A stretch of DNA of 4,903 nt, taken from positions 1-4,903 of IMG/VR virus record IMGVR_UViG_2663762857_000011; one strand, written 5' to 3'. The notes beneath the pieces are model-generated. The model was not told the origin of the DNA and made no database searches. It worked only from the letters and a program-made list of their open reading frames with translations. Position numbers and translations under genes: made by a program. Source of the DNA: a virus (lineage: Duplodnaviria; Heunggongvirae; Uroviricota; Caudoviricetes). Positions 1 through 4,903 of the stretch are shown here, one piece after another (position 1 is the first letter of the stretch; the number at the start of each line of letters is the position of its first letter).

Positions 1-144
1 ACCGGGTTCTCCTTTCCATTTTTGGCAAACAAAAACTCCTGTTAAATTGCCGTGCTGGTTAACAGATGTATGCCCTACGATGTAGCTTCCTTTAGTTGCT
101 TTCTCTGCCTTTTCACGCAGTGCCTGATAGTTAATTTGGGTCAC
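1..144 (-). CDS. Hypothetical protein, partial: N-terminal 48 codons, continues past the left edge of the window
   Basis: GTG at 144..142 overlaps the upstream TGA stop (GTGA). GGAGG lies 7 nt upstream. The frame is open for 48 codons to position 1 (VTQINYQALREKAEKATKGSYIVGHTSVNQHGNLTGVFVCQKWKGEPG). Absent from the ORF track, presumably because it is truncated. No homology recognised. Confidence 0.4.
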   Translation of the reverse strand, partial: MTQINYQALREKAEKATKGSYIVGHTSVNQHGNLTGVFVCQKWKGEPG

Positions 145-365
145 TCTTCATCCTCCAAGTCGGCAACGGCGTCCATCACATCAGAACCGCGAATAACCTC
201 AAAAGCACGGCAGGCCATTTGAAATACCAGTTGCTCTTGCGGATGCGGTGATTCCCAATATTTGAATCCAGGGCGATGCGCGTACCCCATCATTGAATAA
301 AAATCACCAGCAAGCTTAATCGCGGCATCAACAAGCTCTCTGTTAGTCATTCTTTTTCCGCTCAC
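141..365 (-). CDS. Small hypothetical protein with acidic C-terminus (about 75 aa from GTG; ORF track gives 85 aa from an upstream start at 398)
   Basis: ORF track 141..398. The preferred start is GTG at 365..363, preceded by AAGGAGG at 6 nt spacing and overlapping the upstream stop as GTGA. C-terminus ...VMDAVADLEDEE. Leftward early operon context. No recognised domain. Confidence 0.55.
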   Translation of the reverse strand: MSGKRMTNRELVDAAIKLAGDFYSMMGYAHRPGFKYWESPHPQEQLVFQMACRAFEVIRGSDVMDAVADLEDEE

Positions 366-973
366 TGGTTGCCTCCTTTGCGAATCTGTTCCGCCCATTC
401 TTCTAGGGATTTCTCCGCATATTCACCGGACAGGCCATCAATCGGGTGTGGTTCATTAGCCAACTCTTCTTTCGCTGACAGAATCATGCGTGTAACGTCG
501 AAAACTTCACGTAAAGACTTATTGATAAATCCGTGATTGAAAGCAGCAGCAAGACGGCTTGCGGTATAGTTAATCCCCTCGTTGCGTGCTTCCGCACGAA
601 TTTCAGCCAGGAAATCATCGGTGGCTGGAGTTTCGCTGTGGTGCAGGGCATCGTTGATAATCATTGCAGCAACACCAGCCTGCCCTGCATCCGTGACCGA
701 CACATGCTCAAGAGTTACGGCCATTGCGTGTTTCAGCCCCGCATTCTCCGCCGCCAGCGCCGAAAACTTCTCGTGTGCCAACTTAACAGCTGCATCAGCC
801 TGCTTAATTGACTCAATCGCTTTCTGTTGGTCTTCGGACAGAGCCAAAATCTTGGCCTCCGCTTCAGCAAATTTACGCACCAGATATTCAGCATTTGTTT
901 CATTCACTTTCAGATCTCGTGGTACACATTTCCCGCGAAGAAACCCTTCCATTTCGAAAACATTCATGCGCAT
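362..973 (-). CDS. Hypothetical Ala-rich, probably alpha-helical protein (203 aa), early-left operon
   Basis: ORF track 362..973. ATG at 973 has GGAG 8 nt upstream and overlaps the upstream gene end by 10 nt. An alternative ATG at 967 forms an ATGA overlap with the upstream stop. The stop overlaps the next start (GTGA). No family recognised from sequence alone. Confidence 0.7.
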   Translation of the reverse strand: MRMNVFEMEGFLRGKCVPRDLKVNETNAEYLVRKFAEAEAKILALSEDQQKAIESIKQADAAVKLAHEKFSALAAENAGLKHAMAVTLEHVSVTDAGQAGVAAMIINDALHHSETPATDDFLAEIRAEARNEGINYTASRLAAAFNHGFINKSLREVFDVTRMILSAKEELANEPHPIDGLSGEYAEKSLEEWAEQIRKGGNQ

Positions 974-1500
974 GTGCGTAACTCCGATAACTCGTTAAAG
1001 CGCTCCATAAACATCCCGTAGGCATGGCTCGGAGCCAGTGGAATAACTTTGAACATTTCTGTTGCCGGGATACCTTCCAGTACTGGCCAGAAAGAGCCAT
1101 CATCAAGCCCGAGATCGCGACGTTCGGTTGCCAGCATAATGAGATCGGCATATTTCACTGGCGTGCTCATAACAGGAGGTAACCCGTATTTCTCACGGAT
1201 TACGGCGTCTATTTTTTCTTCCATCCGTTTATAGTCAGGAAGAAGGCGTTTCAGTGGCGCGGGGATGTCCTGGCAATACGCTTCTGTTGCATCATGCATT
1301 AATGCTTCAAAAGCAAATTCCTGCGGTACCAGCTGGCTGCAAAGCACCGCATGTTGGGCGACGCTGTAGAAATGAGAAAGATGACCGGCAAAGCGGCAGA
1401 TATTTGAAAGGGAAACCGCGATATCGTTAATCACGATGTCGTCTTTATTTATCTTGTCATAATAAAAATGCTTCCCGGAAAAAGTTTTAATAAATGACAT
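964..1500 (-). CDS. yfdR: HD-domain phosphohydrolase, YfdR-like 5'-deoxynucleotidase (178 aa)
   Basis: Start trimmed from the ORF-track 964..1569 to ATG at 1500..1498 (MSFIKTF...), which has GGAG about 7 nt upstream. HD signature: H...H (RFAGHLSHFYSVAQHA) followed by ALMHDATEAYCQDIPAPLKR, resembling the YfbR/YfdR pattern recalled from memory. Length equals the 178 aa recalled for prophage YfdR. The symbol is a family-level assignment, not a verified ortholog. Confidence 0.75.
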   Translation of the reverse strand: MSFIKTFSGKHFYYDKINKDDIVINDIAVSLSNICRFAGHLSHFYSVAQHAVLCSQLVPQEFAFEALMHDATEAYCQDIPAPLKRLLPDYKRMEEKIDAVIREKYGLPPVMSTPVKYADLIMLATERRDLGLDDGSFWPVLEGIPATEMFKVIPLAPSHAYGMFMERFNELSELRTCA

Positions 1501-1541
1501 TTTGTTCTCCACGTTATATGCGCTGCACCGCTCTGAATTTT

Positions 1542-1592
1542 GATTGCAGCAATCCAGCCCATTTGACATGGGATGATTGCTGCAATTTTTTT
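1542..1592 (+). terminator. Terminator-like extended hairpin on the plus strand (12 bp perfect stem, inner 5 bp stem, then T-run), opposing the minus-strand operon
   Basis: attgcagcaatc (1543..1554) pairs with gattgctgcaat (1575..1586). The loop holds a nested palindrome cccat-ttgac-atggg. Six to seven T follow (1586..1592) on the plus strand only. Lies between the RdgC-like stop (1591..1593) and the HD gene start (1500). Confidence 0.45.
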
Positions 1593-2508
1593 AAGTTGTT
1601 GGATTTTGGCTTTTATCTTCTTTGTAAGAAAGAAGGTCACACATCAAATTAACTACCTTGCTGAATTGGAAAAGGTCAGCGCCAGTCTGATGACGCCACT
1701 GGAATGCTTTATCATCTTCATCATTAAATGTCTGAGATTGAGTATTGATGCGCGAAAAATGGAAATTTTCGGTAAGAATGAAGGTCACACCGCAACCGGA
1801 TAACTCCATTTTATCAGCAGTGAAACTACTACTAAGGCTATCGGCCAGTTCGCTTTGAATTGACTCATGCTCAGCTGAGTAGCGAATAATTTCCTTTTGA
1901 TCTGCGTAGCGTGATAGCTGAATATAATTTCCGACAGTGAATCCTTCAAATGCATTGGCTGCACCATTGATGTAGTTATTCAGGCGTGTAGTCAGTCCAT
2001 TCTTGATATCACTGATGTTGATTGTTTCTGTTTTCACTGAACCGACAACCTTAATCAGCATTGCGCATACCATACCGGCTATTATTTTATTGGTTGTGTT
2101 GATTACCAATAATTTCTCATCAGTGCTGTACAATGCAAGAATCAGCGTAGACTTAACAAATGCCTGTTTGCATAGATCTACTCGTACGTTATCAATAATG
2201 GTCAGTCGTTCGGCACGCTTTAATTTATTCCCGGACATATTTTCGATTGTTTGGATTCGAGAATTAGCTTCTTTCATGACGACATGTCGGGGAATTATTT
2301 TCTGATCATGACGGATTACCATTGCGTACCCACCAGATATCGGAGTTACCAGTTCACCAGTGACAGGATTCTCTACAAAAGAGGACCGTGAAAGTTCTGT
2401 TTCCCCGATTTCAGAATAAGGGAGTTCGAGAAGATGACCTTCAATAGCCTGTATACTAGGTAATGTTGCTCGGTACACAATTGCGTTACGAAATTTTGGT
2501 AATTTCAT
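1591..2508 (-). CDS. rdgC: RdgC-like recombination-associated protein (306 aa)
   Basis: Start trimmed from the ORF-track 1591..2658 to ATG at 2508..2506 (MKLPKFRNAIVYR...), preceded by GAGGA at 7 nt. The N-terminal motif FRNAIVYR resembles RdgC FKNLMVYR. Further blocks (GYAMVIRHDQKIIPRHVVMK; KLKRAERLTIIDNVRVDLCKQAF) align with E. coli RdgC as recalled from memory. The upstream in-frame extension is a TTG-initiated read-through of the structured leader with no RBS. Confidence 0.75.
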   Translation of the reverse strand: MKLPKFRNAIVYRATLPSIQAIEGHLLELPYSEIGETELSRSSFVENPVTGELVTPISGGYAMVIRHDQKIIPRHVVMKEANSRIQTIENMSGNKLKRAERLTIIDNVRVDLCKQAFVKSTLILALYSTDEKLLVINTTNKIIAGMVCAMLIKVVGSVKTETINISDIKNGLTTRLNNYINGAANAFEGFTVGNYIQLSRYADQKEIIRYSAEHESIQSELADSLSSSFTADKMELSGCGVTFILTENFHFSRINTQSQTFNDEDDKAFQWRHQTGADLFQFSKVVNLMCDLLSYKEDKSQNPTT

Positions 2509-3107
2509 TCTATTTTCCTCTGCACAAGATATTAGTTTCTCCACAAAACAGAGAAGAACACCTGCGGTGGCAGCCGCCCGGGTGGATTGGGTTATGAGCC
2601 CGTCGTCCGGTGATGCTCTTCTCTGTTTTGTAAAAAGAGCGGTACCAGCCGGAAGCAAGTGTACAAACTGGTACCGCCAAAGCAGTGGCTGCTGTGGTGA
2701 CCGATGCTGATCTCCGGCTTGCGGTTATTTCAGACTCTCACGGGCGTTTAATTGCCCCGCCGAACAGCTCTTTTCCGCAATAGCTGCAATGTCTTTCGTG
2801 CATCAGCCTGCGCATTCACCACAACGCTGAGAGCACTTAGCCAGTTACGGCACCACACTTTGTCGCGGTTCCATAAATGCCCTCATCGTTGCACCCTGGT
2901 CTCTTCCCAGGTGTCAAACCGAACCGCCACGCTGGTTAGGCGTCTTATCAGCATCCTCATTGACTTGCACATTCCGGCTACCTGGTTTGTTTGCCCGAGC
3001 AAGGAGTGGATTGTCCCCTTTAACGTCCCCAGACCGCTAACGACGCATGTGCCATACGCCGTGTTACAACCAAATTTTGTTTAATCTTGCCTGTGACATG
3101 TTTCTTT
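2509..3107 (-). other. Long (~590 nt) untranslated, GC-enriched, inverted-repeat-rich leader between the pL-like promoter and the first leftward gene; candidate structured RNA or regulatory element
   Basis: No minus-strand ORF of 60 aa or more. All three minus frames are interrupted by stops (one frame has stops at 3066, 3039, 2916, 2847, 2805 and 2727). Local GC is about 55-57% against roughly 40-45% in flanking genes (estimated by eye). Multiple hairpins, including the 18 bp inverted repeat at 2543..2631 and GGTACCAG/CTGGTACC at 2641..2675. Confidence 0.4.
2543..2631 (-). repeat. 18 bp inverted repeat flanking a 53 nt GC-rich loop (89 nt hairpin) just upstream of the RdgC-like RBS
   Basis: Plus acaaaacagagaagaaca (2543..2560) against tgctcttctctgttttgt (2614..2631). 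The single mismatch is A/C on the plus strand but a G.U wobble on the minus-strand RNA, so the stem is fully paired only in the leftward transcript. Confidence 0.6.
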
Positions 3108-3142
3108 TAGATACATTATGTATCTCAAGGGTACATTGTCAA
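3108..3142 (-). promoter_or_regulatory. pL-like early leftward promoter (-35 TTGACA, 16 nt spacer, -10 CATAAT)
   Basis: On the minus strand, TTGACA at 3142..3137 and CATAAT at 3120..3115. Sits immediately downstream of the cI terminator and upstream of the leader. The -10 is overlapped by the 17 bp palindrome. Confidence 0.5.
3109..3125. promoter_or_regulatory. Operator-like 17 bp perfect palindrome (agatacat-t-atgtatct) overlapping the -10 of the pL-like promoter (oL candidate)
   Basis: Perfect 8 bp arms around a single central base. The position overlapping a promoter -10 is typical of a repressor operator. Confidence 0.45.
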
Positions 3143-3146
3143 GTAT

Positions 3147-3169
3147 AAAAAAACCTGCCGAAGCAGGTT
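3147..3169 (-). terminator. Rho-independent terminator downstream of the repressor gene
   Basis: Minus-strand RNA: AACCUGC-UUCG-GCAGGUU followed by five or more U. That is a 7 bp stem with a UUCG tetraloop, starting 12 nt after the cI stop at 3181..3183. Confidence 0.7.
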
Positions 3170-3180
3170 ATAAATATTGA

Positions 3181-3855
3181 TTAGGCCTTTATTTTGTATC
3201 TTCTTGGTTTTCCTGAGAAAATTACTGTGCCAATTATAGAGCAATTACCGTTGATCTTAATGTAAGGTTCAGGCCAGTTTGGGTTTAATGCTTTGAGGTA
3301 ACGCTGTGTTCCATCTTCTATCAACCGCTTAAAGGTGGTTTCGCCTGTATCGTGCATCAATGCAATAACGTCGTCACCGTGGCAGGCAGGGACTTCAGGA
3401 TCTACAAAAATCATGTCTCCCGGGCGGTACTCATCAATCATTGAATCACCAATCACCCGCAAGATATAAGTCATTTCGCCACAGGGTACAGGGCAGGGAT
3501 AAGTTTCTGCTGTGCTCAAATCAACCTCAGAATAGCCAACTTCTTTCCATGCTCCGGCCTGTACCCATGATATGACAGGGACTAACGTTATTTGTTTGTT
3601 AGTAATTGAAACATCAGGTTTTTTTGTGATGTTTGTTGTCTGGTGTTCTTGATCAAGCCATCCGACAGGCAGGTCGAAACATTTTTCGATGTGCCGTGCC
3701 ATGCTGTCACCGATATTTTTAGTAGCACCATCTCCCATAAACCTGCTGGTCTGGGTTGGCTCGCGATCAATCATGGTGGCAAAGGAAGAATTCCCGCCAA
3801 CACCATCTCTCAGTTTTCTGGCGTTAGACCGCCGGATGTCATGGACTGTTTTCAT
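3181..3855 (-). CDS. Prophage repressor, CI/LexA family (N-terminal HTH plus C-terminal S24 autopeptidase), 224 aa
   Basis: ORF track 3181..3855. The C-terminal domain has the S24 signature: GDSM with Ser138, FKRL with Lys176 (38 residues apart), and a candidate Ala100-Gly101 autocleavage site (VQAGAW). The N-terminal 70 aa is HTH-like. Divergent from the Cro-like gene and followed by a terminator. Confidence 0.9.
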   Translation of the reverse strand: MKTVHDIRRSNARKLRDGVGGNSSFATMIDREPTQTSRFMGDGATKNIGDSMARHIEKCFDLPVGWLDQEHQTTNITKKPDVSITNKQITLVPVISWVQAGAWKEVGYSEVDLSTAETYPCPVPCGEMTYILRVIGDSMIDEYRPGDMIFVDPEVPACHGDDVIALMHDTGETTFKRLIEDGTQRYLKALNPNWPEPYIKINGNCSIIGTVIFSGKPRRYKIKA

Positions 3856-3871
3856 AACGAAATTAAAACCT

Positions 3872-3890
3872 TTGTACCGATAGGGTACAA
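3872..3890. promoter_or_regulatory. Operator-like 19 bp perfect palindrome TTGTACC-gatag-GGTACAA in the cI/cro intergenic region (oR candidate)
   Basis: Perfect 7 bp arms with a 5 bp spacer. Located 17 bp from the cI start codon and about 55 bp upstream of the cro start. GTAC-containing half-site-like motifs recur at 3934..3948 and 3131..3136. Confidence 0.45.
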
Positions 3891-3945
3891 GTATCTTTAA
3901 GGTTCATCTCAATCATGTAGTATGTATATTGGAGGTACATATTGT

Positions 3946-4146
3946 ATGAAAGCGTATTGGGACTCTTTAACCAAAGAACAGCAGGGCGAGTTGGCCGGAA
4001 AAGTTGGCTCAACACCAGGCTACTTACGGCTGGTTTTCAATGGTTATAAAAAAGCCAGTTTTGTGCTGGCTAAAAAACTTGAGCAATGCACGTCAGGTGC
4101 AATTACGAAATCTGACTTAAGACCGGATATCTATCCGAAAGATTAA
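3946..4146 (+). CDS. Cro-like small HTH regulator (YdaS/Cro family), 66 aa
   Basis: Start trimmed from the ORF-track 3922..4146 to ATG at 3946, which has GGAGG at 3931..3935. The upstream ATG at 3922 has no RBS and would translate the SD itself. The C-terminal motif ...SGAITKSDLRPDIY resembles the YdaS-type Cro pattern (...G.V....LRPD). Divergent from the repressor. Confidence 0.75.
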   Translation: MKAYWDSLTKEQQGELAGKVGSTPGYLRLVFNGYKKASFVLAKKLEQCTSGAITKSDLRPDIYPKD

Positions 4147-4177
4147 CAGAACACCTTCAATTTTTAACCACAGAACG

Positions 4178-4747
4178 ATGAGGCTAACCGTGGGTAAGCA
4201 TCACTGGAAAGTAGAAAAACAGCCTGAGTGGTACGTGAAAGCTGTCAGAAAAACTATCGCGGCGTTGCCGGGGGGTTACGCTGAAGCTGCTGAGTGGCTG
4301 GATGTAACAGAGAACGCTTTATTCAATCGCCTTCGTGCCGATGGCGATCAGATTTTCCCGCTGGGATGGGCAATGATTTTACAACGTGCTGGTGGAACTC
4401 ACTTCATTGCTGACGCTGTGGCGCAGTCTGCAAATGGCGTCTTTGTGTCTCTTCCTGACGTCGAGGATGTGGACAACGCCGATATTAACCAGCGTCTGCT
4501 GGAAGTCATCGAACAGATCGGGAGTTACTCAAAGCAGATTCGTTCGGCAATCGAAGATGGGGTAGTGGAACCGCATGAGAAAACAGCAATTAACGACGAA
4601 CTGTATCTTTCAATTTCGAAGCTCCAGGAGCATGCAGCACTGGTCTACAAAATCTTCTGCGCTCCAGAAAAGAGTAACGCCCGCGAGTGTGCAGCTCCGG
4701 GCGTCGTGGCGTCGATTGCTTCTGGTTGTGGAGAAACTAACGCATGA
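4178..4747 (+). CDS. CII-like / YdaT-family early regulatory protein (189 aa; possible GTG start at 4190 giving 185 aa)
   Basis: ORF track 4178..4747. Sits directly after cro, the position that CII or YdaT occupies in lambdoid prophages. GAGG lies 6 nt before the in-frame GTG at 4190, whereas no clear SD precedes ATG 4178. The family assignment is by position and general resemblance only. Confidence 0.6.
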   Translation: MRLTVGKHHWKVEKQPEWYVKAVRKTIAALPGGYAEAAEWLDVTENALFNRLRADGDQIFPLGWAMILQRAGGTHFIADAVAQSANGVFVSLPDVEDVDNADINQRLLEVIEQIGSYSKQIRSAIEDGVVEPHEKTAINDELYLSISKLQEHAALVYKIFCAPEKSNARECAAPGVVASIASGCGETNA

Positions 4748-4903
4748 ATAGTTTAACGGCAAATAACCGTTTGCATATTGATTCTGCAATTCCGGGACGT
4801 TACACTGCTCAGGCACCTTATAAAGCGGGGGCCGGGCGTGGAAACCCGAAATTCAATATAGAGCACAACCGCGCTCATGCGGTTTTTTCGTGTCATGAGC
4901 ATC
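4744..4903 (+). CDS. Hypothetical protein, partial: N-terminal 53 codons, continues past the right edge; occupies the position of a replication or early gene
   Basis: ATG at 4744 overlaps the upstream TGA (ATGA). GGAG lies about 10 nt upstream. The frame is open to the window end (MNSLTANNRLHIDSAIPGRYTAQAPYKAGAGRGNPKFNIEHNRAHAVFSCHEH). No family recognised. Confidence 0.4.
   Translation, partial: MNSLTANNRLHIDSAIPGRYTAQAPYKAGAGRGNPKFNIEHNRAHAVFSCHEH

Follow-up and report, generated by a model that had tools for sequence, protein, structure and literature searches.

The stretch of DNA analyzed here (4,903 nucleotides, IMG/VR record IMGVR_UViG_2663762857_000011, positions 1 to 4,903; hereafter the window) covers the immunity region of an N-less lambdoid prophage of the SfV / ST64B / mEp460 / LLS kind. 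Its leftward transcript carries a long hairpin shortly before the first early-left gene, rdgC, and this hairpin is the closing stem (P1) of a self-contained three-way-junction RNA of ~100 nt (P1/P2/P3; hereafter the element), which stands directly behind an intrinsic terminator and has a P2 tip that shares 14 identical nt with the anticodon arm of initiator transfer RNA (tRNA-fMet). The minus strand is free of open reading frames (ORFs) of at least 40 amino acids for ~600 nt before rdgC, and rdgC is followed on the same strand by a YfbR/YfdR-like gene and further early-left genes. A near-consensus leftward promoter lies inside operator-like inverted repeats (3098-3136) just downstream of the S24/LexA-type repressor gene. 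The ORF-free stretch, the promoter and the gene order together place the hairpin within the untranslated leader of the early-left operon, and the features of the locus, from right to left, are as follows:

4813-4889, plus strand: isrK-family RNA (full-length Rfam match at 57.7 bits, gathering score 50; E = 7e-11)
4178-4747, plus strand: gene of the CII/CP76 family
3946-4146, plus strand: Cro-like gene
3181-3855, minus strand: S24/LexA-type repressor gene
3142..3115, minus strand: pL-type early-left promoter (TTGACA, 16-nt spacer, CATAAT; 11/12 matches in a promoter scan)
2680..3108, minus strand: untranslated leader of ~430 nt (no ORF of at least 40 amino acids in the ORF lists)
2638..2678, minus strand: terminator hairpin, 13-bp stem (GGCGGUACCAGUU / GGCUGGUACCGCU) with a 15-nt loop, found as an inverted repeat
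2632..2636, minus strand: U5 tract, the tail of the terminator, which can alternatively pair with GGAGA to lengthen P1
2612..2631, minus strand: P1 5' arm, ACAAAACAGAGAAGAGCAUC (fold, inverted repeat, covariation)
2578..2610, minus strand: P2 arm, in which CCGG/CCGG closes GA-C-GGG-CUCAUAA-CCC-AA-UC (fold, covariation)
2564..2577, minus strand: P3 hairpin, GCGG-CUGCCA-CCGC (fold; compensatory changes at 2/4 pairs)
2543..2562, minus strand: P1 3' arm, GGUGUUCUUCUCUGUUUUGU (fold, inverted repeat, covariation)
2535..2542, minus strand: conserved 3' flank, GGAGAAAC (homolog alignment)
2517-2530, minus strand: weak small hairpin, UCUU-GUGCAG-AGGA (fold -2.3 kcal/mol), overlapping the Shine-Dalgarno (SD) sequence GAGGA
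2520..2516, minus strand: SD sequence GAGGA (sequence reading)
2508..2506, minus strand: AUG of rdgC (sequence reading)
2508..1591, minus strand: rdgC, RdgC family (PF04381, E = 5e-31)

The arms of the inverted repeat (2543-2567 and 2607-2631, 25 nt each and 39 nt apart) form in the minus-strand RNA a 25-bp closing stem around a branched interior, with a minimum free energy (MFE) of -52.2 kcal/mol and a z of -5.16 (0/200 shuffles as good). P1 proper comprises 20 contiguous pairs, 2631..2612 with 2562..2543, and the MFE structure adds five wobble-rich pairs between the U-tract (2636..2632) and GGAGA (2542..2538). The original prediction, made from the letters of the window, had described an 18-bp stem with one G.U pair; the hairpin is real and that description was correct if slightly conservative, as we read 20 bp (25 with the extension) and two G.U pairs. 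Both of these, G2616.U2558 and U2613.G2561, are wobbles on the minus-strand RNA and C/A mismatches on the plus strand. The plus strand folds with nearly equal energy (-51.6 kcal/mol, z = -4.31), but only through a shorter stem, and a covariance model built from the P1/P2/P3 structure gave the window a minus-strand score of 121.0 bits and a plus-strand score of 44.7 bits.

To score the P1, P2 and P3 pairs across homologs, we aligned 25 diverse copies of the type found near pL. The 34 pairs were 95.4% paired, compared with 38-50% when partners were slid by 1-3 columns, and compensatory changes occurred at 10 pairs: six in P1, two in P2 and two in P3. The six in P1, whose columns 13-32 and 108-127 are 95% paired, represent the changes in both arms that had been proposed as a check on the hairpin. 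RNAalifold recovered P1, P2 and P3 independently. The length of P1 is fixed at 20 bp in all pL-type copies despite turnover of its sequence, P2 covaries within the pL type and across classes, and P3 varies in length (14 to 40 nt) and in its loop; the junction as a whole spans 89-99 nt. At columns 31/109 of the alignment, 21 of the 25 homologs retain a U.G wobble. Covariation, conserved wobbles and the gap between minus- and plus-strand model scores together argue that selection acts on this structure in the leftward transcript, as had been proposed from strand-specific G.U pairing.

The same prediction had drawn attention to a boxA-like motif immediately 5' of the hairpin, and suggested that motif and hairpin form an antitermination site of the nut or rrn type. 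The motif, GCUCUUUUUACAA, is present at 2640..2628, but it consists of the final four bases of a 13-bp stem, a U5 tract and the first bases of P1. The hairpin to which that stem belongs folds at -20.8 kcal/mol (z = -4.0), its GC-rich stem is followed by C-U5, and its 3' arm contains the 'GCUC' of the motif; a simple terminator scan missed it (2678..2638) owing to its loop of more than 8 nt. Nearly all of 70 distinct upstream regions carry a stem of 8-13 bp ending 1-2 nt before a T5-T7 tract, with stem sequences that differ wholly among homologs (GGCGGUACCAG, GCGGCAUC, UGCCCAUC, GUCGGCGUC, CUGGCGG, GGGCGGUAAC). Since stem and T-tract are kept while the stem sequences differ, this is a conserved intrinsic terminator, and the 'boxA' is its 3' half plus U-tract. 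Transversions at G2, C5 and U6 of lambda boxA abolish function (PMC3177189), and these positions are not conserved in the homologs (CGUCC, CGCCC, CGACC, GCACC, CGCAU), where even close E. coli variants read CCGUCC and not CCGCUC. A nut-type boxB of ~15 nt was not found, the junction of 89-99 nt following instead; the ~430-nt leader contains no N-like ORF in ORF lists and Pfam searches, the first gene being that for RdgC; and the complete mEp460 genome holds a single covariance-model match, without a second copy or nutR counterpart. The antitermination-site claim is therefore not upheld, and neither is the proposed alternative 6-bp helix between GCUCUU and AAGAGC, for which 78.0% pairing compares with a shuffled mean of 78.7% (442/500 shuffles at or above the observed value).

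The tip of P2 carries a copy of initiator-tRNA sequence. Fourteen nucleotides, CGGGCUCAUAACCC (C2602..C2589, with CAU at 2596..2594), are identical to positions 28-41 of E. coli tRNA-fMet, whose sequence we found unchanged (100% identity) in each of the 5,426 E. coli genomes, and cover the three G-C pairs and the CUCAUAA loop of its anticodon arm. We estimate that a 14-mer would match some E. coli tRNA by chance with a probability of ~1e-3. The whole tip, GA-C-GGG-CUCAUAA-CCC-AA-UC, is near-invariant across homologs, and the 21-nt tip recurs unchanged in a prophage-like region of acidobacterial origin.

The element is widespread. Its 109-nt form occurs in 2,520 of 5,426 complete E. coli genomes (46%), at 3,361 places and in up to five copies each, where it is unannotated or called a hypothetical protein with annotated ORFs on either strand, and a scan of one genome per species found it in ~15 genera of Enterobacterales. 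Megablast relatives sharing sequence from 2532-2535 include cdtI, mEp460, Ayreon, Stx2c and Stx2a phages, SfV, SfII and SfIV, in which the downstream gene is usually yfdP, not rdgC. Salmonella ST64B, Citrobacter phiNP, Klebsiella Kp4866-6 and coliphage LLS have diverged copies at this position, between repressor and first early-left gene; in these four as in mEp460 and Ayreon the element is always in sense orientation between repressor/pL and the first early-left gene, which varies (yfdP, rdgC or yfdR-like). Most homologous phages match the window from 2532-2535 rightward, a mosaic boundary that coincides with the base of P1, and the gene to its left is swapped (rdgC here; yfdP, yfdR-like genes and others elsewhere). 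The pL-type element lies 25-46 nt before the first start codon; in the window, the SD sequence lies 22 nt and the AUG of rdgC 34 nt beyond the end of the 20-bp stem at 2543. Between P1 and the SD sequence, 5-10 nt 3' of P1, most homologs carry a small covarying hairpin with a GC stem and a U(K)GCAG-type loop, of which the window has a weak counterpart, though in yfdP-type homologs the hairpin is strong (-12 to -15 kcal/mol) and covarying.

Other settings keep the tip on a covarying P2, which identifies the conserved unit as the P2 + P3 core; judged from these sequences, the long P1 is specific to pL-type copies. In late operons of Klebsiella and Raoultella phages, downstream of Q, the same core lies 6 nt 3' of genes for tRNA-Asn, tRNA-Arg and other tRNAs, with P1 and P3 of 6-7 bp each and a 3' end of GGCC-R-CCA at which similarity stops. 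These late-type copies are tRNA-sized (locus L004, 3007-3078; also L005, L023, L025, L160 and others), and the Klebsiella ones precede a terminator, not a start codon. Late-operon versions in general retain P2 and P3 with a P1 of 5-7 bp. In Raoultella, Pantoea and other Enterobacterales the tip lies downstream of a terminator, ~55-250 nt before a holin gene, and it also occurs with a covarying P2 in a human-gut phage lineage. Finally, in an Acidobacteriaceae metagenome-assembled genome and in bog metagenomes, the identical 21-nt tip lies inside a 13-bp plus 9-bp hairpin (L152, 2544-2640, minus strand; L183, L191, L194) between small ORFs, downstream of genes for a Dam-type (D12) methylase and an endolysin-type glucosaminidase.

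A search of Rfam 15 (4,227 families) with the window, the region and four related loci matched no family at the element, its sole hits there being chance-level matches to hairpin-ribozyme and miRNA models (E ~1), and the core sequence appeared in no searchable paper, nor in the supplements of the study of Hfq in enterohemorrhagic E. coli. The element as a family, and its exact copy of the initiator anticodon arm, appear to be undescribed, though an element of this kind resembles known phage leader structures and tRNA mimics. E. coli K-12 (CPS-53) does not carry it, which may be one reason why it has been overlooked.

Judged by sequence, the leader upstream of the terminator looks like an sRNA-type (small RNA) transcript that ends there, and the element starts exactly where read-through transcripts run on. 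In LLS the 50 nt ending at the terminator correspond to the 3' portion of RprA (AUUGCUGUGUGUAGUCUU with the terminator; Rfam E = 0.05), and in ST64B the 120 nt preceding the terminator match STnc100 at 35 bits, below the gathering score. An RprA-like 3' box (UGCUGUGUGUAGUCUU) stands just 5' of the terminator in 42 of 147 pL-type loci (for example L009, 2370-2506, and L006, 2298-2416); the window has a different sequence there (CAGCAGCCACUGCUU), and its own leader gave zero Rfam matches at E < 10. The prophage sRNAs STnc100/PasD and RprA are thus neighbors, by way of these partial matches in relatives' leaders, whereas neither family is matched by the element; STnc100 is present in late-operon leaders as well.

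Several further features of the region stand beside these results. The leader contains a second, paralogous long stem, 'module B' (CAACGAUGAGGGCA ... UGCUCUCAGCGUUGUGG, ~2892..2819, minus strand; in relatives, L007 ~2190-2320 and L008 ~2170-2310), whose arms resemble those of P1 and which scores ~10 bits only with the covariance model; its interior in phiNP and Kp4866-6 holds two hairpins with canonical T-arm sequences (GGUUCGAUUCC, GUCCGUUCAAUUCGGAC). The promoter-proximal leader (~2898-3075, minus strand) has 78-88% matches in unrelated phage types (L203, 2501-2685; L204, 2501-2745), namely P1-like phages and phage-plasmids, phiV10, SJ46, RCS47 and SPN9TCW, always in unannotated intergenic DNA and, in the P1 record inspected, upstream of a ban/DnaB-like helicase gene; from its sequence, this part may be another portable leader RNA module. 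At ~3000-3050 (minus strand), ACGGCG..CAUGCGUCG..AGCGG loosely resembles by eye part of HK022 putL/putR, where BLAST found nothing significant. Hairpins with a GUGCAG loop recur just 5' of other SD sequences (e.g., L132 and L133). The match to isrK, the family of an Hfq-binding RNA of Gifsy-type prophages, lies directly 3' of the CII-like gene, and a weak match to the Rfam family c4-a1b1 (E = 0.25) overlaps it.

We tentatively propose, with a probability of roughly 0.4, that the element is a post-transcriptional leader module in which P1 serves as clamp and RNase III site and the tip is bound by a conserved host factor. Transcription would begin at pL (3142..3115) and traverse the ~430-nt leader to the intrinsic terminator (2678..2632); polymerases that read through would then transcribe the module, the small hairpin and the ribosome-binding site (RBS) of the first gene, rdgC here and yfdP in most relatives. 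The P1 of 20-25 bp would clamp the module and insulate the terminator-ended leader RNA from the downstream RBS, and cleavage of P1 by RNase III would part leader from mRNA and free the core as a small stable RNA, leaving a processed mRNA that starts near the conserved small GC-rich hairpin, which could shield its 5' end. That homology breaks at the foot of P1 is consistent with a leader cassette that is both portable and insulated. Natural E. coli substrates of RNase III are ~20 bp long, and the 20 contiguous plus five extension pairs of P1 provide the ~two helical turns (at least 20 bp of near-perfect double-stranded RNA) expected of a substrate, making cleavage of this stem plausible on structural grounds. 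Known RNase III hairpins (the lambda N-leader site, sib, T7 R1.1) are likewise near-perfect duplexes of ~20-25 bp in an early leader before the first cistron; the P1 duplex in many homologs has one or two conserved mismatches. The known sites are simple hairpins, whereas this element encloses a conserved branched core that occurs in other operons with a short stem, and cleavage here is a prediction. For late-operon copies, the position 6 nt from tRNA genes and the GGCC-R-CCA end suggest release of the core by tRNA-processing enzymes. In either setting the near-invariant P2 tip would be read by a conserved host factor that normally recognizes the initiator anticodon arm.

Several observations weigh against this proposal. 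RNase III cannot account for the late-operon versions with a short P1, nor for the invariance of the tip. That invariance is partly built into the sample, as most homologs were gathered by a pattern that fixes the tip, though the BLAST-derived matches inspected carry the same tip. In 8 viral contigs UAU, AAU, CCU or CGU stands in place of CAU, which more than 120 carry. At default thresholds ARAGORN, in its bacterial and mitochondrial modes, calls no class a tRNA, and the Rfam tRNA model finds no match at E <= 10, compared with 64-66 bits for neighboring true tRNAs; with both negative for every class, we rejected a true tRNA. The aligned sequences are related, so that the shuffle statistics (0/500 shuffles match the observed percentage paired or covariation score) overstate independence, and the slid-partner control together with turnover of the arm sequences is more convincing than the shuffle control.

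The tip also invites readings in which the tRNA likeness itself is the function. The 14-nt arm is the one found in tRNA-fMet and comparable to known mimics (the thrS operator, YrlA/Y RNA-like and viral tRNA-like structures), and late-operon versions are moreover laid out like a tRNA, with an end stem of 6-7 bp, a coaxial hairpin, an extended 'anticodon' arm and RCCA at the 3' end. In contrast to the initiator tRNA, the element has no D-arm and no canonical T-loop and is not called by tRNA finders, its pL-type form has a closed stem of 20-25 bp and no CCA, and the sequences on either side of its tip (GAC / AAUCC) do not look like a tRNA. A cis-acting translational operator or enhancer, in which the arm engages the 30S P site, initiation factor 3 or methionyl-tRNA synthetase, would suit the position 25-46 nt before the first start codon in pL-type copies and near the start codon at holin genes and in the acidobacterial copy; three G-C pairs and CUCAUAA are an established hallmark of P-site selection of the initiator tRNA, and thrS-type operators that mimic anticodon arms are a precedent. 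A variant of this idea, in which the pyrimidine-rich 3' arm of P1 covers the SD sequence unless P1 forms, was rejected, given that accessibility of the SD sequence, computed with the P1 5' arm present or absent, revealed no consistent switch in 20 homologs. Klebsiella late-type copies moreover precede a terminator, complementarity to 16S, 23S and 5S rRNA reaches at most 8 nt, the same as in shuffles, and CCU and UAU lineages retain an ordinary AUG start; direct pairing of 'anticodon' with the start codon in cis was rejected, as the CAU-variant lineages keep an ordinary AUG downstream, with no compensatory change. We regard such an operator as unlikely. To a similar degree doubtful is action in trans, whereby temperate phages of several phyla would use an excised leader RNA, cut out by RNase III where the stem is long and by tRNA-processing enzymes where it lies among tRNA genes with RCCA, to mimic tRNA-fMet as an initiation modulator or as a toxin or defense decoy. 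A decoy core would titrate or misdirect a factor targeting tRNA-fMet, such as a VapC-type anticodon nuclease or another tRNA-directed defense system or toxin, and could be a candidate in hosts such as Shigella and Salmonella, whose VapC toxins cleave tRNA-fMet. The 14-nt identity, a tip conserved across phyla and always in phage context, tRNA-sized late copies with an RCCA end among phage tRNA genes, and T-arm-like hairpins in relatives' leaders are consistent with it, but the idea is a conjecture from likeness, a stoichiometric decoy is inefficient against an enzyme, loop variants exist, and the conserved flanks (GAC...AAUCC) do not resemble a tRNA.

Less probable still is a nut-like or put-like site, at which the RNA, with NusB/NusE or alone, modifies RNA polymerase to read through early-left terminators. 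Such a site would be welcome in phages without an N homolog, as LLS was reported to be, and the authors of that report guessed at a put-like mechanism (PMC12315714); the element also lies early in an operon with later terminators (e.g., in Ayreon), and the window motif resembles rrn boxA at ~11/13 positions. With lambda nutL/nutR and rrn boxA the window shares a promoter-proximal place, in a lambdoid early leader, and the order of a boxA-like string followed by a hairpin, but its string is a terminator 3' arm with U-tract whose bases are paired and unconserved at G2, C5 and U6, an 89-nt three-way junction stands in place of a 15-nt boxB, and there is no N gene and one copy per genome with no nutR or putR counterpart. 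The element follows the first terminator and does not precede it, and its core also occurs in late operons of Q-encoding phages, where an RNA antiterminator would be redundant. HK022 putL/putR are likewise structured RNAs, in the pL leader of an N-less lambdoid phage, with no dedicated phage protein evident. They consist of two stem-loops of ~70 nt from the transcription start, upstream of terminators, and are present twice (PMC9378689), whereas the element folds as a three-way junction, follows the first terminator and is present once. BLAST and the covariance model found no similarity between the element and putL/putR or the HK022 immunity region, and an HK022-type put RNA was rejected on architecture, position, copy number and similarity. 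No covariance-model match was found in phi80 either, and its M3 RNA, a known RNase P substrate, was rejected as a homolog, being an unrelated oop homolog. A GcvB sponge of the AgvB type, considered for the CA-rich and GU-rich arms, was likewise rejected, since the Rfam AgvB model is unmatched and CACAACA occurs in some variants only. We consider very unlikely a new self-cleaving ribozyme or riboswitch aptamer, with a tip constrained by catalysis or a small molecule and not by protein: the three-way junction has a 21-nt segment that stays near-invariant across phyla, and its phage intergenic sites, sometimes beside tRNAs, are typical of small ribozymes, but none of the ribozyme or riboswitch models in Rfam matches, invariance resides in a terminal hairpin and not in the junction or a pocket, and no expression platform responds in silico. 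Scarcely credible, lastly, is a DNA palindrome serving recombination or protein binding, or a small coding gene. The mosaic boundary, the ORFs called across the element on either strand and the good plus-strand fold would suit these, but the conservation of G.U wobbles and a covariance-model score that differs by 76 bits between strands would not, nor would covariation in the branched interior, for which a simple palindrome has no need. The antisense ORF (MSPSSGDAL...), despite a good SD sequence, ranges from 9 to more than 100 amino acids with unrelated C-termini and was rejected as not conserved, and the minus-strand ORF is annotated as frameshifted in RefSeq.

Here, we describe an RNA element that 46% of complete E. 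coli genomes and many other Enterobacterales carry, yet which is unannotated or misannotated as hypothetical ORFs. Recognition of this element and its terminator corrects the annotation of early-left regulation in a very common class of N-less lambdoid prophages, a class that includes relatives of Stx2- and Cdt-converting phages, and provides a defined RNA with which to ask how N-less phages control early-left expression. The exact copy of the initiator anticodon arm, conserved in enterobacterial as well as acidobacterial prophages, points to a possible new form of tRNA mimicry by phages.

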